Shown: positions 587-9,891, counted from the first letter of the stretch. The stretch: 9,891 nucleotides of DNA from a virus (IMGVR_UViG_2627853730_000001:1-9891); one strand, 5' to 3'. Numbers and translations: made by a program. The notes: generated from the letters alone by a model not told the origin.

Positions 587-1198
587 TTAACCAACAACAT
601 TTTTCTTTACTGTCACTGCCCCTGATTCCTGGGTGGCGTTATTGCTCGAGTTGTACTTCTCAATAACGCGCAAAATCTCTTTGTCTGTTTCTTCACTTCC
701 CGCCATTCCTATCTTTATTGCATTTTTTAGTACGGGACGTAATGGCAAGGCATCAATGATGCTTTCTACCGCATCCTGGCTGATTGTAGATGTATTCATT
801 GCTGCCAGCCTGACAAGGTTGTTAGTACCTTCTCGCCTGATGAATGTAAGGATTAATTGCTTCTCTTGGGGGCTTAGAGAGCTAAGCGCCTGATCAATAC
901 CCGAACCTGAATCGCAATTTTTTCCGATTTTTCCGCATTCATCTTCGTTCTTGCCTGTGGCCAACCAGTCGAGTGAACAATTACAGGCTTTAGCTATTAA
1001 GGCCAGTTTATCCAAAGGAGGGAAGTTTTTCCCCTTCCTGTAATTTCTTACTGTGGCTTCAGATAGTCCACAAAGGGTCGCCAGTTCGACGTTTGTCATG
1101 TTTCCCATAGCCATAGCTAAGCGTTCTGAAAATCGGTTTATTCCTTCCATATCAATAAACCGTTCCGCACTGGATACGGTTTTTTCTGCCTTATCCAT
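587..1198 (-). CDS. Prophage lysogeny repressor (functional analogue of Mu c) with an XRE/lambda-cI-type helix-turn-helix; 203 aa.
   Basis: Leftward ORF divergent from ner across the operator, in the position of Mu c. Residues ~34-80 (MTNVELATLCGLSEATVRNYRKGKNFPPLDKLALIAKACNCSLDWLATG) fit the HTH_XRE pattern. GGGGG Shine-Dalgarno lies upstream of ATG (complement of 1196-1198). I see no obvious S24 peptidase motif in the C-terminal part. Confidence 0.75.
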   Translation of the reverse strand: MDKAEKTVSSAERFIDMEGINRFSERLAMAMGNMTNVELATLCGLSEATVRNYRKGKNFPPLDKLALIAKACNCSLDWLATGKNEDECGKIGKNCDSGSGIDQALSSLSPQEKQLILTFIRREGTNNLVRLAAMNTSTISQDAVESIIDALPLRPVLKNAIKIGMAGSEETDKEILRVIEKYNSSNNATQESGAVTVKKNVVG

Positions 1199-1354: not shown

Positions 1355-1621
1355 ATGAGGGTATCCAGACAAGCATCGAATAATTTGTTTGTTCGAGAGG
1401 GGTGTGACTGGTCTGCTAAAGCGGTATATGCAGCCCTTGAAAACAAAGGCACAGACCTCCCTGAACTGGAAAGGGAGTTAGGATTAAAAAGCGGATCAAT
1501 GCGCAATGTGTTTTACCGCCAGTGCCGTAAATACGAAGCCGCCATCGCCGAAAAAATAGGGGTTGAACCTGCTGTAATCTGGCCCAGCAGATACCAGGTG
1601 GACGCCAGAGAAGTGGCTTGA
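1355..1621 (+). CDS. ner: Ner-like DNA-binding protein (Mu Ner / Nlp-Sfs7 family), negative regulator of early transcription; 88 aa.
   Basis: Translation contains DWSAKAVYAAL and the C-terminal AVIWPSRYQ, matching the Mu Ner / E. coli Nlp signature (DWHxADIIAGL ... EVIWPSRYQ). First rightward gene after the operator, with a good Shine-Dalgarno. Confidence 0.85.
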   Translation: MRVSRQASNNLFVREGCDWSAKAVYAALENKGTDLPELERELGLKSGSMRNVFYRQCRKYEAAIAEKIGVEPAVIWPSRYQVDAREVA

Positions 1622-1631
1622 TGGGGGATGT

Positions 1632-3722
1632 ATGTGGGTAACAGCAAAAGAATGTGTTGGTCTTCCTGATTTACCAATGATGGAACATAACATTCGCCAT
1701 CGACTCACAAAAGCAGCTGCGGGAAATGCAGCCATGTTACGCAAACGTAAGGGGACAAAAGCAATCGAATTTAATATCGATTGTTTGCCTTCTGGCGCGC
1801 AACAAGTATTGCGTGAACGTTATGCCCTTCAACTGATGACGCAAAAAGCTGATGAATCACCGGCTCCGGTGGTGACAAAGGCCAGACGCTCATCTGCCGT
1901 GGTTGATGCGGTGGAGGCATATCGCGGATCACCACAACTGATGCTCGAACGCCTCAATGCCCTGACTGAAAACCAGCGCCAGGTGGCTGATGCACGAATC
2001 GCGATCGTCAGCGAAGTTCTGAAAGTCGCGCAACAACCTGGTTTCAGCTGTGCGAAGGCTATCCGGTTTATCGTTGACAACCTGGCACGTTCGCAACTGG
2101 ACGAGCGCATTGTGGCAATGGTTGAGACGGCGAACGCCAAAAAGGGAAACAGCCGTGCGTTGAGTGAAATCACGCTGAAACGCTGGATTGCGGCCTTTAA
2201 CAAGGCACAGAACGCCGCTGAACGCCTGCTTTTACTGGCACCGGGTAAACGCCAGGAAATAAAAGCCGAAGATATTAACTGGCTGCCCGAATTTCTGGCG
2301 CAGTATCGCCAGTCAAACGGCCGACCAATGACCGAGGCTTACGAGGATTTTGTTGCTGAATGGCAGCACCGGCACGCTGATGAGCCTTATATGCTCGATA
2401 TCATGCCCTCTTATGACACCATTCGCCGCGCAATGAAGAAACTGCCGGAAGTGGTGAAACAAAAAGGCCGGGTAACTGGCAGTGAATACCGTCAGCTTGA
2501 GGGATTCACGCGCCGCGACTGGTCCAGAATGCCGGTGAATTATGTCTGGATTGGTGACGGTCACGGCATGAAGCTGAAATGCGCGCACCCGGTTCACGGG
2601 CGGCCATTCGCACCGGAAGTGACCTTTGTTATCGACGGTGGCACGCGCTTTGTGGTGGGCTGGAGCCTTGACCTGGCTGAAAATGTTTTCGCCGTAGCCG
2701 GTGCCATACAGCACGGTATTCGCCATCATGGCAAACCGTTTCTGTATTACTCGGATAATGGCTCCGGGGAAACCGCCGACGTCCTGGATAAGGAGATTGT
2801 GGGGATACTGCCACGACTGGGGATTAATCACCCGACAGGGATTGCCGGTAATCCGCAGGGACGGGGCATTATCGAACGGCTTAACCGCACATTACCGATG
2901 CGCATAGCCCGTAAATACCGCACCTATTTCGGGAAAGGAGCAGATCGCGAGACGTTACGTAAAACCAACCGCGATTTACGCTCGGCATTCAGTGCCCTGC
3001 AACAGGGCAAACGGCTGAACGCCCGGCAGCAGTCAGCGATGCGTGATTTACCGTCCTGGTCTGAACTGATTGATGCCATTCGTGACGGTGTTGAGTGGTA
3101 CAACAACCGGCCGCACGATGAATTACCCATGAAGCCGAACGGTAAACATTACAGCCCGGCGGAGTTCAGAAAAAAACGCCTGGCGGAAGAGGACACGGAA
3201 ATTGAATGGCTGTCCGATGTTGAACTGCGGGATATGTTCCGGCCGATGGTGGAGCGCCCTGTAAGACGCTGTGAAATACGCTGGCTGAATAATATTTACT
3301 ACGCGCCCGAGCTGCGTGACGAGCATGGCCGTAAGGTACTTATCAGCTATGACATTCATGATGCCGAACGAATTACCGTGCGCCGCCCGGATGGCAGCGT
3401 GATTTGCGAGGCGGTATGGGACGGCAATAAACGCGAAGCCTTCCCTGTCAGCGCGGAATACTACAAACAGCAGCAGCGCCTTAAAGGCATGCGTAAACGC
3501 GCAGAGGAAAAAATCCGTGATGCCGAGGATGAGGTTGTCAACGTGCTGGAGCACAAGCCGCAGGAGCCCTGGCTGGAAAACATATACCGCCCTGTGGGTA
3601 ATACGGTGACCGTTCAGCAACCGGTCGCTGACGATGAACCTGATGAAGAATACGAGCGTAATTTCCAGCGGGGATTGCAACTGCTCGAAGCGAAATTAAA
3701 AGAAAGTGATCCGCTGGCCTGA
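1632..3722 (+). CDS. A: Mu-type DDE transposase A (MuA-like), 696 aa.
   Basis: N-terminus MWVTAKECVGLPDLP resembles MuA MELWVSPKECANLPGLP (enhancer/operator-binding domain). DDE catalytic triad contexts are present: WIGDGHGMK, YYSDNGSGE, GRGIIERLNRT. Size and position (immediately after ner) fit. GGGGG Shine-Dalgarno lies 4 nt upstream of ATG 1632. Confidence 0.9.
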   Translation: MWVTAKECVGLPDLPMMEHNIRHRLTKAAAGNAAMLRKRKGTKAIEFNIDCLPSGAQQVLRERYALQLMTQKADESPAPVVTKARRSSAVVDAVEAYRGSPQLMLERLNALTENQRQVADARIAIVSEVLKVAQQPGFSCAKAIRFIVDNLARSQLDERIVAMVETANAKKGNSRALSEITLKRWIAAFNKAQNAAERLLLLAPGKRQEIKAEDINWLPEFLAQYRQSNGRPMTEAYEDFVAEWQHRHADEPYMLDIMPSYDTIRRAMKKLPEVVKQKGRVTGSEYRQLEGFTRRDWSRMPVNYVWIGDGHGMKLKCAHPVHGRPFAPEVTFVIDGGTRFVVGWSLDLAENVFAVAGAIQHGIRHHGKPFLYYSDNGSGETADVLDKEIVGILPRLGINHPTGIAGNPQGRGIIERLNRTLPMRIARKYRTYFGKGADRETLRKTNRDLRSAFSALQQGKRLNARQQSAMRDLPSWSELIDAIRDGVEWYNNRPHDELPMKPNGKHYSPAEFRKKRLAEEDTEIEWLSDVELRDMFRPMVERPVRRCEIRWLNNIYYAPELRDEHGRKVLISYDIHDAERITVRRPDGSVICEAVWDGNKREAFPVSAEYYKQQQRLKGMRKRAEEKIRDAEDEVVNVLEHKPQEPWLENIYRPVGNTVTVQQPVADDEPDEEYERNFQRGLQLLEAKLKESDPLA

Positions 3723-3804
3723 AATAAAAAAATAACCCGAGGGGTGACTCAGGTTATTTGAGGTTTCAGTCTCGGAGAATGCTGTCTCAAGCGAGGTGAA
3801 TAAT

Positions 3805-4737
3805 ATGACCGATATTAACGATGTAATCAAGACCATTGATGAACTTATTGATGGCGGCGTACTGACGCAGTATGCCATCGCCAGAGAGGCGGGAATTTCC
3901 GACGGCACATTATCGGCTTTCCGTAAGGGAAAATATAAAGGCGATAACGCTGCTGTGGCTGCTTCCCTGCGCTCCTGGTATGAGAACTGGAATAAACAAA
4001 GCGCACTGCCGGAACCGCCGCAGTTTGTGGAAACTCAGACAGTCCAGGAGCTGCGCGCACTGTTTCAGGCGGTTCGCCTGATGGGCTGTATTAACGTTAT
4101 TGTGGGCGTACCGGGTGTGGGTAAAACGGCCACTGCCCGTAATTACTGCCAGGAGCAACCAAACACCTGGATGATCACCCTGTCACCCGCGCACTCCAGC
4201 GTCACGGAGTGTCTGCTGGAGCTGGCCGATGCGCTGGGGATTGATTACACCCGCGCGAACAAAGGGGCATTATCCCGCGCCATCCGCCGTCGCCTGACGG
4301 GAACGCGTGGACTGGTGATTGTGGATGAGGCGGATCATCTTGGTATTGACGGTCTGGAGCAACTCCGGGCAATTCAGGACGCCACGGGGATCGGGATGGT
4401 GCTTATTGGTAACCCGCGCGGATTGTTTAAAGGTGGACGCCGCGCCTTTGATGATTTATCGCGCCTGTTCAGCCGTCTTGCCCGTACAAAACAACTTCGC
4501 AAGGCCAAAAAGGCGGATGTGCTGGCCATTGCCAGGGCATGGGGTATCAGTGGTGAGGCCGAGCTGGCCGTCATGCAGGCTATCGCTGAAAAGCCGGGAG
4601 CATTACGTGTTCTGACACATACGCTTAACCAGGCGTGGCTCACCGCCAGCGGTGAAGGCGCGGCGCTGACAGAAAAACATATTAATGCGGCCTTTAAAGA
4701 GGTTTATACCAACCCTGAATTACTCTCACAGGTGTGA
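3805..4737 (+). CDS. B: Mu B-like AAA+ ATPase, target-DNA activator of transposition; about 310 aa. Alternative GTG start at 3796.
   Basis: Walker A GVPGVGKT and Walker B LVIVDEADHL are present. N-terminal region ...GISDGTLSAFRKGKYKGDNAAV... parallels MuB ...FINDKYNGDNERV.... Length is close to MuB (312 aa). ATG 3805 is preceded by GAGGTG (3793-3798) at 6-nt spacing. Confidence 0.85.
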   Translation: MTDINDVIKTIDELIDGGVLTQYAIAREAGISDGTLSAFRKGKYKGDNAAVAASLRSWYENWNKQSALPEPPQFVETQTVQELRALFQAVRLMGCINVIVGVPGVGKTATARNYCQEQPNTWMITLSPAHSSVTECLLELADALGIDYTRANKGALSRAIRRRLTGTRGLVIVDEADHLGIDGLEQLRAIQDATGIGMVLIGNPRGLFKGGRRAFDDLSRLFSRLARTKQLRKAKKADVLAIARAWGISGEAELAVMQAIAEKPGALRVLTHTLNQAWLTASGEGAALTEKHINAAFKEVYTNPELLSQV

Positions 4738-4739
4738 TT

Positions 4740-4961
4740 ATGGCGGTATTTAATATTCCTGATATTTACGGACGCTTTTACCTGGTTAATTTCGATAACG
4801 TGAAGGTGATTTCACTGGCCGAAAATAAAGCATGTGGCGATTTACTTTTTGAATTTAATGACCGCACACGAATGGTGATATCTGCCGGACTTGATCGCGA
4901 AGGTGCGACAGAAGTTTACAGCGGAATATGCCGTTCTGTTGGTGCGAAACAAGTCAGCTAA
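4740..4961 (+). CDS. Small early protein, 73 aa, in the position occupied by kil in Mu (positional analogy only).
   Basis: ORF starts 3 nt after the B stop with AGGTG 6 nt upstream of ATG 4740 (the six-frame track gives a GTG at 4734). Size matches my recollection of Mu Kil (~74 aa), but I recognise no sequence similarity. Confidence 0.5.
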   Translation: MAVFNIPDIYGRFYLVNFDNVKVISLAENKACGDLLFEFNDRTRMVISAGLDREGATEVYSGICRSVGAKQVS

Positions 4962-5229: not shown

Positions 5230-5511
5230 GTGAAAAAAAATCTCATTGCATGGGCGTGGTCGAGTGGTCTTATTGAGTTTGGTTACGTCCTGCCGGAAGG
5301 TGCATTGCCGATAGTTGCCGGAAAGCCCGCCACGGTACGGCATGTGATTGATGTTGTGGCGCGTCATGGACGCGATGAACAGGAACAGCTACTGGTTCCT
5401 GGAATACCGGAAGCGGTGACGGAAGAAGAAGCCTTTAATGCCATGGTTCAGTTCTGCCGTGAGGTCAGACGCCGGGTCAGTTATCCAAACAGAACGAGGG
5501 CCAGAGGATGA
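5230..5511 (+). CDS. Hypothetical early protein, 93 aa.
   Basis: GTG 5230 is preceded by GGGAGG (5218-5223) at 6-nt spacing and lies 1 nt after the upstream stop. The 3' end overlaps the next start in an ATGA junction (5508-5511). Confidence 0.55.
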   Translation: MKKNLIAWAWSSGLIEFGYVLPEGALPIVAGKPATVRHVIDVVARHGRDEQEQLLVPGIPEAVTEEEAFNAMVQFCREVRRRVSYPNRTRARG

Positions 5512-5780
5512 GTAAAGTCGTGCGCATTATTTTCGAATACAAGGAGGACGTTATCCGTAAAAACGCTGATGGAACAGTGCACATGGGGGTAAGTCTGGAT
5601 ATACGTTCAACCGGAATAAAGCAGAAAAATGATAGCCCCGCCATGATTTTTGGGGTGGTTATGCTGGCAGAAAGCAGAAACTTCGCAGAGCTTGTGGCAA
5701 TGAAAGCCAGTGCATTCATGAAAGACAGGGGCATGGCTTCCGGGGTTATTAACGGTAATGAATTTAATCAGCAGGGGTAA
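5508..5780 (+). CDS. Hypothetical early protein, 90 aa; paralogue 1 of a tandem pair.
   Basis: ATGA overlap with the upstream gene. N-terminus MSKVVRIIFEY is shared with the next gene, and the first ~35 nt are near-identical to the start of 5786-6078. Confidence 0.6.
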   Translation: MSKVVRIIFEYKEDVIRKNADGTVHMGVSLDIRSTGIKQKNDSPAMIFGVVMLAESRNFAELVAMKASAFMKDRGMASGVINGNEFNQQG

Positions 5781-5785
5781 TTCCA

Positions 5786-6078
5786 TGAGCAAAGTACGCG
5801 TTATTTTTGAATTTGAGCATGTTTCGCATGACGAAAAACCGGCAGGCAATGACAGTGTTGAAGTGCATGAAAAGATTGGTGTGGATGTAAAAACAGAACG
5901 TGATACGGATAACAGGCCGACGTCACTCTGTGACGTTTATGCAAGTATTCTCCAGTATCACAGTCCTGAAATTATTCAGTTTCTCTCAGCGGAATTTCAG
6001 GCATCTGTACAGGCTTTTGGGGCGGATGCCATCATTAAACGCCACCGCGTGCATAAAGCATCAGGCACACTGCAATAA
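5786..6078 (+). CDS. Hypothetical early protein, 97 aa; paralogue 2 of a tandem pair.
   Basis: I prefer ATG 5786 (CAGGGG Shine-Dalgarno at 5773-5777) over the track's 5758 start because it gives N-terminus MSKVRVIFEF, parallel to the upstream paralogue. A C-terminal segment (QFLSAEFQASVQAFG) weakly resembles ELVAMKASAFMKDRG in paralogue 1. Confidence 0.6.
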
Positions 6079-6089
6079 GGAAAAACAAA

Positions 6090-6620
6090 ATGGCTAAACG
6101 CGTTACAAAATTAAAGGCCGCAGCCGAGGCAGCACCGCAGACCCGTGAAGAGGTCAGCCGCGATATCCGACGCTTTGGGGATATGCAGCGTGAGGCACTA
6201 CGCCTGGAAACGGCGATGAATGACGAAGTGGCAGAAATCACCGCCCGTTATACGCCGCAGATTGAAAACCTTAAAAAAGAAATCAAAGTGCTTTTTAAGG
6301 GGATTCATGACTGGTGTAAAACCAACCGCAATGAGCTGACGAACGGCGGCGAAACCAAAACAGCCAATCTGACCACCGGAACGGTGTCATGGCGGCTGGG
6401 AACGCCATCATGCAGCGTCAGCCGTGATGTGGAAGGCGTGATTGAAATGCTGCGCCGTATGGGCCTTGAGCGCTTCATCCGCACGAAAGAGGAAGTGAAT
6501 AAGCAAGCTGTCCTGGCGGAGCCAGATGCGGTGAAGGGCATTGCCGGTATAAAGGTGAATAAAGGCGCTGAAAGTTTTTATGTCGAGCCTTTTGAACAGG
6601 ACGCCGGACTGAATAAATAA
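6090..6620 (+). CDS. gam: Gam-like host-nuclease inhibitor (Mu Gam family, Ku-like DNA-end-binding protein), 176 aa.
   Basis: Translation matches my recollection of Mu Gam along its length: GDMQREALRLETAMNDEVAEIT, ELTNGGETKTANLTTGTVSWR, ERFIRTKEEVNKQAVLAEP. Size and position in the early region fit. Confidence 0.8.
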   Translation: MAKRVTKLKAAAEAAPQTREEVSRDIRRFGDMQREALRLETAMNDEVAEITARYTPQIENLKKEIKVLFKGIHDWCKTNRNELTNGGETKTANLTTGTVSWRLGTPSCSVSRDVEGVIEMLRRMGLERFIRTKEEVNKQAVLAEPDAVKGIAGIKVNKGAESFYVEPFEQDAGLNK

Positions 6621-6717
6621 CACCGCATTAAATCTTTAAATATCACATCGTGTTAATTATGGCGCTCGCGTCAGGGGACTGCCTGCGCCTGTAAACTGAA
6701 AATAAGGAACAGGAAAT

Positions 6718-7260
6718 ATGGCATATTTTTATTTCAAATTAGACATAGTGTACACAAATAAATATTTAACCGAATATCAGCGGGATGTTTTACCGCTACG
6801 CAACAGTATTCTTCGGGCATTACTGAAAAATACAGGCGCTGCCGGATTGCGCTTAAAGCCGTTCGCCATGGACGTAATCAGTGAGTTTTATTTTTCTGGT
6901 TCTCTGCCTGCGGGCTGGCGTAAGCGCGATGATGTGGCTTTTATCGGGGACGGACCGTGCTTTATTGCCAGACCTGATGAGTCATGCCCTGAAGGTCCGG
7001 CGATTGCCGCAATGATTGAAACCGCTGAACGTGAGTTAAGAAAGCGTCCTGATTTCCTTGTCTGGCTCTGTGAAAAGCTGGGGGTAATGAGAATCCCCTC
7101 CATGTTTAACACGGACTCCTGGTGGACCCCGTCGCTCTCCCGTGATGCCCTGTGCGTGGTGTTTAAAGTAGGCGCTTATGGCAGGGAAATAAAAGGGGGT
7201 ATTCCTGAAGAATGCCAGGAAATTAAACATTCTGAATATGTGGCGCTGACGGAGGAATAA
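6718..7260 (+). CDS. Hypothetical protein, 180 aa, no family recognised; first gene after the only sizeable intergenic gap of the early region.
   Basis: Strong AGGAACAGGA Shine-Dalgarno before ATG 6718. The 5' ~80 nt are AT-rich. The frame is open for 180 codons with no competing ORF. Confidence 0.65.
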   Translation: MAYFYFKLDIVYTNKYLTEYQRDVLPLRNSILRALLKNTGAAGLRLKPFAMDVISEFYFSGSLPAGWRKRDDVAFIGDGPCFIARPDESCPEGPAIAAMIETAERELRKRPDFLVWLCEKLGVMRIPSMFNTDSWWTPSLSRDALCVVFKVGAYGREIKGGIPEECQEIKHSEYVALTEE

Positions 7261-7263
7261 TTC

Positions 7264-7797
7264 ATGATTGATGCAAAAGTGCTTGAAGGGGTTAAAAGCT
7301 GGCTGCGTTTTTCTGGCCGTCTGACCAGTCGTTCTCTGGCAGAAAAAATGAATATGCCGCTATCCTCCATGGTTTATTTTCTGCGTGATGCGGTCGATGC
7401 CGGGGTGCTGACGGACCGTAACGGTTTTTATGATATTCCGCGTCCCCGCCCGGTGCAGGCGGTTCGTCGCAAATGCAGCCAGGAAGGTGCGGCTGATGAT
7501 GTTCAGTGGTGCAGCTTCAGAAAATCCCTGCCGTGGATTGAGGGGCATGATATTCCGTCGATGGCGTGGGAATTTGCTCAGGGAGTACTGACCTGCGAAA
7601 CCGTTTATGTGGTGGCTGAAGTTGATGAGCAGGCCATGAAAGAAGGCGTGCCCCAGTTTGTGATGGCGTATATCGACATTCGCCTGGGCGTCATTATCTG
7701 CGGCTTAAGCGGCTGGAACATCACCGGGCGCGTTCTGCGTTACCTGATTATTGACCGGACAGCGGCATCGGCAGGGATATCTGCGGAGGTGGCGTAA
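7264..7797 (+). CDS. Hypothetical protein, 177 aa, with a possible N-terminal winged-helix/HTH-like segment.
   Basis: GGAGGA Shine-Dalgarno at 7251-7256, 7 nt before ATG 7264. N-terminal RLTSRSLAEKMNMPLSSMVYFLRDAVDAGVL looks like a DNA-binding helix-turn-helix/wing, but this is a by-eye judgement. The stop overlaps the next start (TAATG at 7795-7799). Confidence 0.6.
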   Translation: MIDAKVLEGVKSWLRFSGRLTSRSLAEKMNMPLSSMVYFLRDAVDAGVLTDRNGFYDIPRPRPVQAVRRKCSQEGAADDVQWCSFRKSLPWIEGHDIPSMAWEFAQGVLTCETVYVVAEVDEQAMKEGVPQFVMAYIDIRLGVIICGLSGWNITGRVLRYLIIDRTAASAGISAEVA

Positions 7798-8312
7798 TGT
7801 TCTTTAAAACATCAAACCCTTCCGCGCTGGCTGCGTGGCAAAAATACCAGCAGGACTGCCAGAAAGTTAAGGATGAGGCAAAACGCCTTGAGGCCGTGCT
7901 GAATGTTGCGTGCCGGTCGGTATTTGTATCCGGTATCAGTGGATTTTGCTTTAAGGGACTGCGTTTTACGGAGGACAAATATCCTTTTCATCGCGACTTA
8001 TGGCGAAAACCGACTGCGTCGAATGGCTGGAGCTGCACACCGCGCACATCACGTATCCCTAAAACCCTGCGTGTTGCCTCTGATGAACTGAACAGTCTGT
8101 GGCGTGAATATTCGCCCGTCACGTATGCCAGAACCGATGCGCTGTTGTTCTGGCTGGGTATTGATTTCTCGGCAATCCTGTTTGGCCCTGTGAAGTGGTT
8201 CTGCGTTGACGATGTGATTTACCTTCAGTGCGGCGTAAAACCCGCAAAACAGAAAATGACCGAAATACTGTCTGATGAGTTTTATGCTGCTGAAAAGCGA
8301 GTCAGGGGGTGA
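7797..8312 (+). CDS. Hypothetical protein, 171 aa, no family recognised.
   Basis: Translationally coupled to the upstream gene (TAATG overlap) with GGAGGTGG upstream. Long open frame in the operon direction. Confidence 0.6.
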   Translation: MFFKTSNPSALAAWQKYQQDCQKVKDEAKRLEAVLNVACRSVFVSGISGFCFKGLRFTEDKYPFHRDLWRKPTASNGWSCTPRTSRIPKTLRVASDELNSLWREYSPVTYARTDALLFWLGIDFSAILFGPVKWFCVDDVIYLQCGVKPAKQKMTEILSDEFYAAEKRVRG

Positions 8313-8315
8313 TGC

Positions 8316-8867
8316 ATGATGAAATTACAACCCATGGGACTAAAAGGTCGCGCCCCCGCTCATGTCCGTCCGTGGACACCTGAAGAAGATGCGCTGCTGA
8401 TTGCGCTTTATTCATCCACCCCGGTTAAGGATATTGCTGCCAGAATAAAAAGAACTGTCTGGGCTGTATATAACCGGACTGGTGTATTGCGCAGTTCATA
8501 CCCGGAGTTACTGAAATATAAACACCCAAGATTTACACCTGATGAAGATAAGTTTATTCGAAAAAATGCCAGAACAATGACCTGCCAGCAAATGGGAGAA
8601 TATCTCGGACGTAATAAAGATTCTGTCAGATGTCGGGCAGGAATGATTGGTGCTGGATTAACAAAGTGCGGAGAGTTACGCCCCGGCACGCGCATATCTG
8701 ATGATGATGTACGTCTTATACGTGCGCTGCGTGATTCCGATTACCCACGCCGTCTGTCATTCCGGGAAATTGGCGAAAAGTTTGGAATATCTGAACATTC
8801 TGCTCACGCAGTTTATTACCGTCGCCGGACTGCCGAGGACGCTGTATTACGGGAGTTAACGCCATGA
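8316..8867 (+). CDS. Putative DNA-binding protein with three internal Myb/SANT-like or HTH-like repeats, 183 aa.
   Basis: Three ~45-aa segments begin WTPEEDALLIALY..., FTPDEDKFIRKNA..., ISDDDVRLIRALR...; the third ends in an HTH-like RRLSFREIGEKFGISEHSAHAVYYRR. AGGGGGTG Shine-Dalgarno precedes ATG 8316. ATGA overlap with the next gene at 8864-8867. Confidence 0.6.
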   Translation: MMKLQPMGLKGRAPAHVRPWTPEEDALLIALYSSTPVKDIAARIKRTVWAVYNRTGVLRSSYPELLKYKHPRFTPDEDKFIRKNARTMTCQQMGEYLGRNKDSVRCRAGMIGAGLTKCGELRPGTRISDDDVRLIRALRDSDYPRRLSFREIGEKFGISEHSAHAVYYRRRTAEDAVLRELTP

Positions 8868-9196
8868 TAACGACCTTATTTGTTGAATCAGATGAACCTC
8901 TTGTGTGTGCCGCCGGAATGCCGCTCTGTGGCGGAACGCTGACCGGCGTTTATTTCGGGGATTTGCGCGGTTATCCCTGGCATTCACTGGATGACGCATT
9001 TCCGCCTGATATGGAGGCTGTCGTGCTGATTGTTCAGTATGGTGACCAACAGGAACTGCGCATCGGCCATATGGGGTATGAAGGCTTTTTTATTGATGAA
9101 GAAACCGGAGCCTGCCTTGAAGATGAGGACGGACAGGTGACGCACTGGTGCCATCTTTCGGCCTTGCCGGAATTACAGGGGATACATAATGGATGA
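8864..9196 (+). CDS. DUF551-like phage protein, 110 aa.
   Basis: The C-terminal two thirds (PWHSLDDAFPPDMEAVVLIVQYG...GYEGFFIDEETG...VTHWCHLSALPE) fit the DUF551 pattern as I recall it (W-S-D-LP ... VL ... THW-LP-PE). GGGAG Shine-Dalgarno and ATGA coupling at the start. Confidence 0.55.
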   Translation: MITTLFVESDEPLVCAAGMPLCGGTLTGVYFGDLRGYPWHSLDDAFPPDMEAVVLIVQYGDQQELRIGHMGYEGFFIDEETGACLEDEDGQVTHWCHLSALPELQGIHNG

Positions 9197-9332
9197 GCAA
9201 ATTGTTGAATGTCCCACCTGTGGAAATGAGGACCCGGAGTATCTGAAAGAGTGCCCACATTGTGGTGAGATAAAATGTAACCACTGCGATATGGGCGACG
9301 ACACTGCATGTATAAATTGTGAGGATGAATAA
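9189..9332 (+). CDS. Small zinc-ribbon protein, 47 aa, with four CxxC motifs; not in the six-frame track because it is under 60 aa.
   Basis: ATG 9189 overlaps the upstream stop (ATGGATGA) with AGGGG 8 nt upstream. Translation MDEQIVECPTCGNEDPEYLKECPHCGEIKCNHCDMGDDTACINCEDE contains CPTC, CPHC, CNHC, CINC. It fills the gap between flanking genes, and its stop (9330-9332) is followed 1 nt later by the next start. Confidence 0.55.
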   Translation: MDEQIVECPTCGNEDPEYLKECPHCGEIKCNHCDMGDDTACINCEDE

Positions 9333-9333
9333 T

Positions 9334-9621
9334 ATGGAAAAAGAAATCAAATTTGCGCCTAAATCTATCGACGAAGAACTGGCTAAAATCGGCATGCTTG
9401 AACGTATGCGGGACATTATCGAATATGCGATAAAAGAAAATCTTGCAGCCAGAGAAGCCCTTTTGATAATGGAGCGGGAGATTAACCTGATTAAGGATGC
9501 TGTATCTCTGGATAATAAAATAGCCCGCGAGGAATACGTTCGCCGCAGGCTCGGTGTTGATGGTTCAGCAATTCTTACATCTGAACATTATGCAAAAATT
9601 TTTAATCTTTTTCAGCGGTAA
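9334..9621 (+). CDS. Hypothetical charged, probably helical protein, 95 aa, in an AT-rich segment.
   Basis: ATG 9334 is preceded by GAGGA (9321-9325) at 8-nt spacing; the track's longer ORF starts at GTG 9319. Sequence is rich in E/K/R/I/L. Nucleotide composition is visibly more AT-rich than the upstream operon. Confidence 0.5.
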   Translation: MEKEIKFAPKSIDEELAKIGMLERMRDIIEYAIKENLAAREALLIMEREINLIKDAVSLDNKIAREEYVRRRLGVDGSAILTSEHYAKIFNLFQR

Positions 9622-9841
9622 TCCCCATACAGGCCCGGAGATTGTCGAAATGCCAGTCGGTATTAATATATGAGCCATCCTGGATATCTTCTGTATTTTC
9701 CGGGGTAGAGTTTTTTTGAGCGAGATTGATAATATGTATTGCCTCCTCACGGGAAATCAGCCCCTTATCGAACAGGGTTACCATAAGATTTCCAGCCATT
9801 GTGAATGCGGCAACATCAAGTGCATTTTTTATATCTGACAT
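9602..9841 (-). CDS. Hypothetical protein, 79 aa, on the minus strand, convergent with and overlapping the 3' end of the 9334-9621 gene by 20 nt.
   Basis: Minus-strand ATG (complement of 9839-9841) is preceded by AAAGGAAAAA as a ribosome-binding site. It is the only substantial minus-strand ORF in the rightward early region that is not a shadow of a stronger plus-strand gene. AT-rich composition. Confidence 0.45.
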   Translation of the reverse strand: MSDIKNALDVAAFTMAGNLMVTLFDKGLISREEAIHIINLAQKNSTPENTEDIQDGSYINTDWHFDNLRACMGITAEKD

Positions 9842-9854
9842 AGATTTTTCCTTT

Positions 9855-9889
9855 TATGTTAATTGACATGGCGGTGCGGTAACACCGCC
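9855..9889. promoter_or_regulatory. Palindromic elements upstream of the minus-strand gene: near-palindrome ATGTTAATTGACAT and hairpin GGCGGTG-CGGTAA-CACCGCC; candidate operator or promoter region.
   Basis: Perfect 7-bp inverted repeat with a 6-nt loop at 9870-9889 and a near-palindrome at 9855-9868. They lie immediately 5' of the minus-strand start. There is no U-tract on either strand, so not a typical intrinsic terminator. The window ends at 9891, so context is incomplete. Confidence 0.3.
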
Positions 9890-9891
9890 CA

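Follow-up and report, generated by a model that had tools for sequence, protein, structure and literature searches.

The virus-derived stretch IMGVR_UViG_2627853730_000001:1-9891 (9,891 nucleotides, hereafter the window) comprises the left end of a Mu-like transposable Escherichia coli prophage together with the early region, and one of its genes, at positions 8316-8867 on the plus strand, encodes a 183-residue protein with three domains of the helix-turn-helix (HTH) type. Two of these domains are copies of one unit, and the third is a divergent HTH. We consider it probable, at roughly 60%, that this three-HTH protein, encoded in the early (semi-essential) operon, is an accessory DNA-binding protein, a member of the PHROG 323 family that reads an extended site, and not an activator of the Mor/C type. 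The gene is real, common and already annotated by domain in databases; it is not new. An earlier sequence-only reading of the window had delimited the same open reading frame (ORF), and RefSeq PGAP assigns an identical start in a prophage of 99.1% identity, where the product (WP_000977058.1) is named "SANT/Myb-like DNA-binding domain-containing protein." The cluster represented by this exact protein holds 447 sequences from about a thousand contigs, and the 7700-9891 stretch is matched at 99.1% identity in several complete E. coli chromosomes (Megablast). Divergent versions of the protein are named "AsnC family protein" or "hypothetical protein" in RefSeq.

The sequence-only reading had described three segments of ~45 amino acids (aa) that share an opening. 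All three openings are there (aa 20-32, 73-85 and 127-139), with a period of 53-54 aa, made up of a ~40-aa domain and a linker, in place of the ~45 aa proposed. When these segments, referred to here as repeats 1 to 3 (R1, R2 and R3), were compared in the single sequence by Smith-Waterman alignment against shuffles, the signal was weak (R1-R2, p=0.017; R2-R3, p=0.04; R1-R3, p=0.55). Since a single-sequence test is too weak to decide the matter, it was replaced by profile-profile comparison (hhalign) of slices taken from 30 full-length homologs, with column shuffles as the null. R1 and R2 then aligned with a score of 72.1 (probability 98.9%, E 2e-17; null 8.2±1.8), R2 and R3 with a score of 32.2 across a 5-residue insertion (probability 92-93%; null 8.7±2.0), and R1 and R3 with a score of 28.5 over the HTH core only (probability 86-89%). 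None of 150 shuffles reached the observed scores for the two comparisons involving R3. A hidden Markov model (HMM) of the repeat unit, built exclusively from the long array proteins described below, gave 48.7 bits for R1, 42.9 bits for R2 and -0.1 bits for R3. R1 and R2 are copies of one unit. The strong R1-R2 scores and the weaker R3 scores thus define two clear copies plus a third, divergent domain, and R3 is a three-helix-type HTH that is either an old divergent copy or a different HTH. The claim of internal repeats is therefore statistically supported for R1-R2, while R3 falls in the register proposed, at lower significance.

As for the fold, AlphaFold2 predicted three three-helix bundles followed by a C-terminal helix when given 13 homologs (predicted local distance difference test, pLDDT, 79.5; predicted template modeling score, pTM, 0.41). 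With 30 more diverse homologs it returned the same secondary structure at a mean pLDDT of 91.1 and a pTM of 0.67, the linkers being confidently modeled, which suggests that the three domains form one defined body rather than beads on a string. R2 terminates in an invariant K117-x-G119 linker. The second helix of R3, at aa 149-156, reads FREIGEKF; it is invariant in the 13 closer homologs of alignment A1 and near-invariant family-wide. The HTH-like stretch that the sequence-only reading had noticed in the last repeat lies at aa 145-170, and the model indeed places an HTH there. Its mention of basic, helix-rich stretches also fits, the protein having an isoelectric point of 9.96, a net charge of +13 and a positive charge in each helix-3 region. 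Fold, profile and repeat evidence alike support a triple-HTH, Myb-like and probably DNA-binding protein.

The kind of HTH was assessed by comparing the family profile with known structures. The best match is c-Myb R2R3 (1h88_C; E 6.8e-8), query residues 19-106 aligning on c-Myb 60-149 so that R1 and R2 of the phage protein pair with Myb R2 and R3; B-Myb comes next, followed by the archaeal protein Cbp2 (2lvs; E 8e-6). A profile of the R2 slice finds Cbp2 (2.4e-5), the Mos1 transposase (2.6e-3), Myb (about 0.02) and GcrA (0.059), and that of the R3 slice finds only generic HTHs in the PDB (a designed repeat protein, an Xre-type regulator, CENP-B and sigma-E region 4). Among 30 family members, 18 match Pfam Myb_DNA-binding and 20 match Sigma70_r4 at E≤0.01, and SANT domains are among the structural neighbors of the model. 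The Myb-type character of R1 and R2 is statistically supported at the profile level, and "Myb-like" is a fair description of both; the Myb/SANT assignment put forward earlier does not extend to R3, whose sequence is not Myb-like. R1 and R2 correspond to the tandem ~50-aa three-helix repeats of Myb R2R3. Unlike Myb, which has three spaced tryptophans per repeat, the phage protein has two tryptophans in all and keeps only the first of the three, W20 in R1, R2 opening instead with F73. It differs further in being a bacterial-virus protein with conserved, confidently modeled linkers.

Cbp2, with two HTHs, and its three-HTH relative Cbp1 are, like the phage protein, small, basic and composed of nothing but duplicated HTHs joined by short linkers. 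In Cbp1, the three duplicated HTHs follow one another 5'→3' along a repeat of 24 bp, with HTH3 recruiting a partner in addition (PMC10883916). The Cbp proteins are, however, the products of archaeal chromosomal genes and bind CRISPR repeats, and the homology is at the level of the unit, not of the whole protein. By analogy, Cbp1 is the best functional model for how the phage protein may work. The "AsnC family" name carried by divergent versions is an over-annotation that we reject. It is unjustified because AsnC/Lrp proteins have a RAM (AsnC_trans_reg) domain, which was not found here, the remainder of the protein being two Myb-type HTHs; in addition, the HTH_AsnC-type score on R3 is below its Pfam cutoff.

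The protein belongs to a large family. It matches PHROG 323 ("transcriptional regulator, D5-like") with E 2e-52, aa 2-182 aligning on positions 80-256 of the 319-position profile. PHROG 323 also matches a P2-type homolog (6e-37), another Mu-type homolog (4e-35), an array protein and, with E 5e-29, gp9 of phage Mu (also E8 or Mup09; 99 aa, encoded between gp8 and gam). Mu gp9 aligns on positions 64-165 of our family profile, that is, on R2 and R3 (E 3e-16). A BLAST comparison of the three-HTH protein with Mu gp9 was not significant (E 1.7), the relation being visible with profiles only. On this profile evidence, the protein is a longer, three-domain relative of the Mu early protein gp9/E8. In both cases the gene belongs to a transposable phage's semi-essential early region, but gp9 has two domains and lacks the N-terminal arm, R1 and the C-terminal helix. 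The gp9 gene lies upstream of gam, whereas ours lies between gp12-like and gp13/gp14-like genes, a slot in which Mu itself has no gene.

An exhaustive profile search, cut off at E≤1e-3, returned 9,889 proteins. Among the top matches, about 25 are full-length three-domain proteins of 170-195 aa, and most of the remaining top matches are proteins of 300-1100 aa that align with query positions ~17-115 four to nine times. These array proteins are built of a tandem ~47-aa unit, WTxEEDxxLxxxYxxxxxxEIAxxLGRSxxSVxxRAxxLGL. One of them carries nine units after an SNF2/ResIII-type helicase, and these score above threshold in the Pfam Myb model (140 bits, P0023); some arrays also pass the GcrA model. Some mycobacteriophage ORFs with methylase or HNH endonuclease annotations contain partial matches. 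A Foldseek search of viral models found many uncharacterized multi-HTH phage proteins, among them a Vibrio phage protein called "D5 protein," the probable origin of the PHROG 323 name; that name is an annotation only. We also observed, for P0023, P0026, P0029 and P0075 and for locus L011, large proteins that consist almost wholly of 4-9 tandem Myb/GcrA-type units; one metagenomic contig bears two array genes.

Relatives of the gene occupy fixed genomic slots. Among 63 IMG/VR loci encoding relatives, 41 are Mu-like (58-100% identity) and 21 are P2-like (36-47% identity). All 41 Mu-like loci have the order gp11, gp12-like, three-HTH gene, (110-aa gene), …, GemA, Mor/C, and in the 21 P2-like loci the gene is 1-1.6 kb upstream of replication gene A (gpA). 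Individual locus look-ups agree with both slots; a search of genome contigs with alignment A1 gave no confirmed locus. In some P2-like loci, a PAPS-reductase-like gene follows the homolog, just before gpA. The semi-essential region of Mu is on the long Pe early transcript, and its functions are largely uncharacterized (PMC3820752; PMC8705779).

The pattern of allelic variation bears on how the protein might act. In the Mu-like loci, the three-HTH protein falls into identity classes of 96-100%, 70-74% and 58-60%, while flanking genes are 91-100% identical. Between classes 1 and 2, the gene has a nonsynonymous rate (dN) of 0.15-0.18 and a synonymous rate (dS) of 0.61-0.70 (dN/dS ratio, ω≈0.25), compared with a dN of 0.02-0.04 and a dS of 0.1-0.3 for neighboring genes. 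The divergence is confined to an internal block (Table 1), the first ~148 nt and the last ~44 nt of the gene being conserved between classes. Within the block, it is concentrated in the third helices: class 2 differs at 55% of helix-3 positions versus 11% of helix-1/2 positions (permutation p<5e-5), and class 3 at 57% versus 34% (p=0.011). The conserved elements are the second helix of R3 (FREIGEKF), the first helices of R1 and R2, the K-x-G linker and, at the two ends, the N-terminal arm and the C-terminal helix. This distribution suggests allele-specific DNA recognition, in which the scaffold is kept and specificity would vary between alleles. Positive selection was considered and rejected, ω being ≈0.25; the divergence is that of an old swapped allele, not of recent adaptive change.

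The model that we favor can be outlined as follows. The two Myb/GcrA-type HTHs and the divergent third would be set in a defined arrangement by the linkers, the N-terminal arm and the C-terminal helix. We infer that the protein binds DNA as a monomer, its three recognition helices lying along one extended, asymmetric site, much as Cbp1, the closest functional model, lies on its 24-bp repeat; c-Myb R2R3 would be the classical two-repeat analogue. The site recognized probably differs between the alleles of different phage lineages. The protein would be produced at an early point of lytic growth, alongside Gam, GemA and further host-takeover functions, and its most likely effect would be to modulate transcription, or some other transaction, of host or phage DNA.

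Several observations weigh against this model. Searched alone against Pfam, the protein scores below the gathering threshold of every HTH family. Myb_DNA-binding (PF00249) reaches 20.7 bits versus 24.4 and aligns only with aa 19-33, HTH_AsnC-type on R3 reaches 19.1 bits versus a 27-bit cutoff, and Sigma70_r4 on R3 is below threshold. A search of NCBIfam gave no match. Foldseek comparison of the whole model with the PDB returned nothing at E<1e-3, and no experimental study of family members was found in the literature searched. As for a DNA target, none was found, and none of the phage sites or alleles tested co-varies with the class of the protein: neither a divergent patch at 9664-9723, nor the Mor/C allele and its upstream region, nor the alleles of Ner, the repressor and MuA-N track it. 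Helix-3 variability would also be expected of a weakly constrained exposed surface, or of a protein-binding surface engaged in an arms race. Finally, allele mosaicism is general in the early region and not special to the three-HTH gene; exchangeable alleles form a mosaic across the entire semi-essential region. For instance, when the window was compared with L013-L053, the segments 4734-4961, 5758-6078 and 6718-7260 showed bimodal identity or presence/absence (75-79% versus 96-99%; 62-65% versus 91-99%; 24% or absent versus 89-96%).

Some of these points would be accommodated if the protein were not a sequence-specific DNA binder, and its HTH scaffold instead bound a host protein, or the nucleoid non-specifically, in host takeover or anti-defense, variable helix 3 then reflecting an arms race or relaxed constraint. 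SANT domains, which are structural neighbors of the model, have proteins and not DNA as their binding partners. Of all elements, helix 3 shows the lowest conservation, unlike in most HTH regulators with a fixed operator, the pTM of 0.67 suggests a rigid body, and the conserved N-terminal arm, K-x-G linker and C-terminal helix could be partner-binding surfaces. The neighbors, moreover, are host-takeover genes (Gam, a nuclease-inhibitor-type gene at 5230-5511 and, downstream, GemA). However, ω≈0.25 indicates overall purifying and not positive selection, the protein is highly positively charged, helix-3 regions included, and its nearest sequence relatives of known function (the HTHs of c-Myb, Cbp2, and the Mos1 and Tc3 transposases) bind specific DNA. 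PADLOC defense models matched neither the protein nor its neighbors. On balance, we regard this alternative as unlikely.

A bolder version of allele-specific recognition, to which we would give only a small chance, treats the three recognition helices as an exchangeable specificity cassette. Swapping the block at 8464-8823 would then retarget a rigid reader to host or competing-phage sites and make the gene an early determinant specific to its lineage, governing, for instance, host reprogramming or inter-phage exclusion. The P2-like versions found with a Dam-type methyltransferase might, in addition, be sensitive to adenine methylation.

Methylation also underlies a further alternative, which we hold to be improbable, namely that the protein reads methylated DNA as GcrA does, or is a regulator or specificity partner of a phage methyltransferase. 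The attraction is genomic. In four divergent P2-like prophages (L005-L007 and L012), the homolog is directly 3' of a gene for a D12-class adenine methyltransferase, with stop and start codons abutting or overlapping, and in L008 it is nearby. The tight pairs include L005:7045-9547, L012:6033-7549 and L008:5729-7549. A C5 methylase is encoded two genes away from the homolog in L009, and the mycobacteriophage methylase and HNH endonuclease ORFs contain unit-like segments. The link is optional, though, because an adenine methyltransferase gene adjoins the homolog in 5/21 P2-like and 0/41 Mu-like IMG/VR loci; no methyltransferase gene was found next to it in the window, in the other 16 P2-like loci or in phage Shae_phiSM. 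As for GcrA itself, its DNA-binding domain (PDB 5yiu; Pfam PF07750), including that of homologs from phiCbK-like phages, has one HTH versus three here. The C-terminal part of GcrA binds sigma-70, and the 183-aa phage protein has no residual region that could correspond to it. Pfam GcrA did not match the protein at E≤10, the family profile found no GcrA chain at E≤1, the R2 slice reached only E 0.059, and likeness among small three-helix HTH structures is generic.

This leaves the proposal, made by the sequence-only reading, that the protein activates the next transcriptional stage as a Mor analogue of different ancestry. Expressed from the early transcript, such an activator would switch on the promoter of the single C-like gene or of the late genes. 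The proposal came with the finding that the window holds no Mor or GemA gene, which is correct, but near-identical prophages carry both directly past the right edge. In one of 99.1% identity, about 20 bp separate the window end from the start of the gp16/GemA gene, which is followed by a Mor/C-family gene, and both were detected downstream in the Mu-like loci wherever the contig is long enough, except in L017, which has neither marker. With GemA and Mor/C just past the window edge, the main motive for a Mor substitute is gone. In its favor, the lineage has a single Mor/C-family gene, which resembles Mu C (40% identity, 111 bits) more than it resembles Mu Mor (28%, 59 bits), and a separate "Mor" step is not obviously encoded. 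This C-like gene directly follows a hairpin and T-run conserved downstream of gemA, and the three-HTH protein is a DNA-binding candidate of the early operon.

The evidence on the other side is broader. The protein is comparable to Mor and C in that all are small phage-encoded HTH proteins from the same genome region, but Mor and C are dimers with a single C-terminal HTH. There is no likeness in sequence either, the family HMM giving E 0.22 with Mu Mor and 0.47 with Mu C, and Pfam Mor not matching the protein. Mu has Mor, C and the homolog gp9 together, gp9 being encoded in its semi-essential, largely uncharacterized region. Homologs are also found in P2-like early operons, where late transcription depends on Ogr and no middle stage is known; an Ogr/Delta-type gene is present in L012, one of the P2-like loci sampled. 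Nor do the two genes co-vary: the sequence upstream of the C-like gene tracks the C-like allele and not that of the three-HTH gene, and L031, L036 and L037 combine class-2 recognition helices with a class-1 activator gene and upstream region. Since a Mor/C-family gene is encoded downstream, homologs occur in P2-like phages, Mu has Mor and C alongside gp9, and co-variation is lacking, it is very unlikely that the three-HTH protein is the missing Mor/C-type activator. In L002, the Mor/C-family gene is at 14796-15218, beyond the right end of the window, with the hairpin and T-run (ATCCCGCCACAGCGCGGGATTTTTATTTT) ahead of it at ~14727-14758. The most divergent loci, L052 and L053, have a similar, not identical, hairpin and T-run at the same place.

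To the existing annotation, the analysis adds that the protein is linked to Mu gp9, that its gene has fixed genomic slots, and the allele pattern of the recognition helices. The result is routine and at the level of annotation; it holds no surprise, the family being an ordinary one that is widespread in phages. The semi-essential early regions of Mu-like phages nevertheless contain many small genes without known function, and one such gene is now placed in a large tandem-HTH family and tied to Mu gp9/E8, with its "AsnC family" label corrected. The helix-focused allele differences lead to an easily testable prediction, namely that DNA targets are specific to the allele. Finding one would provide the first function for PHROG 323, which has members in Mu-like and P2-like phages and in many others.

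The gene and its parts, together with the other features of the window, are listed in Table 1. The stop codon of the upstream gene (8310-8312) leaves a gap of only 3 nt before the start of the three-HTH gene, which shows that the genes of this plus-strand string are packed tightly, as in an operon. The overlap with the start of the downstream gene suggests translational coupling. No plus-strand promoter-like or terminator-like site was found in 6600-9891, and there is no second copy of the three-HTH gene in the window.

Table 1. Features of the window and of the three-HTH gene (coordinates from the first nucleotide of the window)
Feature	Coordinates	Strand	Remarks
CI-type repressor	587-1198	-	
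Ner-like gene	1355-1621		within the window
MuA-like transposase	1632-3722		
MuB-like ATPase	3796-4737		
Several small ORFs			among the early genes, besides Gam
Gam	6090-6620	+	annotated as Gam in L002 (99% identical)
Mu gp11-like gene	7264-7797		Pfam Gp11_C
171-aa gene	7797-8312		directly upstream of the three-HTH gene
Shine-Dalgarno-like AGGGGG	8304-8309	+	6 nt ahead of the ATG; read from the sequence
Three-HTH protein, coding sequence	8316-8867	+	183 aa and stop; identical to cluster P0001 and RefSeq WP_000977058.1; PHROG 323 E 2e-52
N-terminal arm, aa 1-17	8316-8366	+	consensus MxLxPMGxPGxCPAHVR; conserved; modeled without regular secondary structure
Repeat 1, aa 18-66	8367-8513	+	opens with WTPEEDALLIALY; Myb/GcrA-type three-helix HTH; helices 22-31, 37-44, 48-61
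Intragenic allelic block, aa ~50-170	8464-8823	+	60-76% identity between classes; gene ends and neighbors ≥90%
Repeat 2, aa 67-119	8514-8672	+	opens with FTPDEDKFIRKNA; second copy of the repeat-1 unit; helices 75-84, 90-97, 101-110
Repeat 3, aa 120-172	8673-8831	+	opens with ISDDDVRLIRALR; divergent HTH; helices 129-140, 149-156, 160-169
C-terminal helix and tail, aa 173-183	8832-8864	+	consensus TAxDAxxRELLP; conserved; helix 173-181 modeled
ATGA overlap	8864-8867	+	stop of the three-HTH gene, start of the 110-aa gene
110-aa gene	8864-9196		directly downstream of the three-HTH gene
More small genes			3' of the three-HTH gene

A few of the remaining small genes can be described further. The 93-aa protein encoded at 5230-5511 on the plus strand matches phrog_1518 and is a second "host nuclease inhibitor"-type gene product besides Gam. 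At 9189-9332 on the plus strand, a 47-aa protein with four CxxC motifs (MDEQIVECPTCGNEDPEYLKECPHCGEIKCNHCDMGDDTACINCEDE) matches phrog_5584, of unknown function, and otherwise only Zn_ribbon_LapB, weakly; it is probably a tiny double zinc-ribbon early protein. The genes at 9319-9621 (plus strand) and 9602-9841 (minus strand) are convergent, their 3' ends sharing 20 nt, and Mu gp14 and gp15 are arranged alike. The 9602-9841 gene and the repressor gene are the sole minus-strand genes of the early region. Finally, a perfect TTGACA at 9864-9869 on the plus strand is followed by a hairpin, GGCGGTGCGGTAACACCGCC, at 9870-9889, and in the 99%-identical locus L002 the GGCGGTGCGGTAACACCGCC hairpin is followed by CATTTTTTA directly before the start of gemA. 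Lying between the minus-strand gene and gemA, the segment at 9864-9889 may be an element of the promoter or terminator type.

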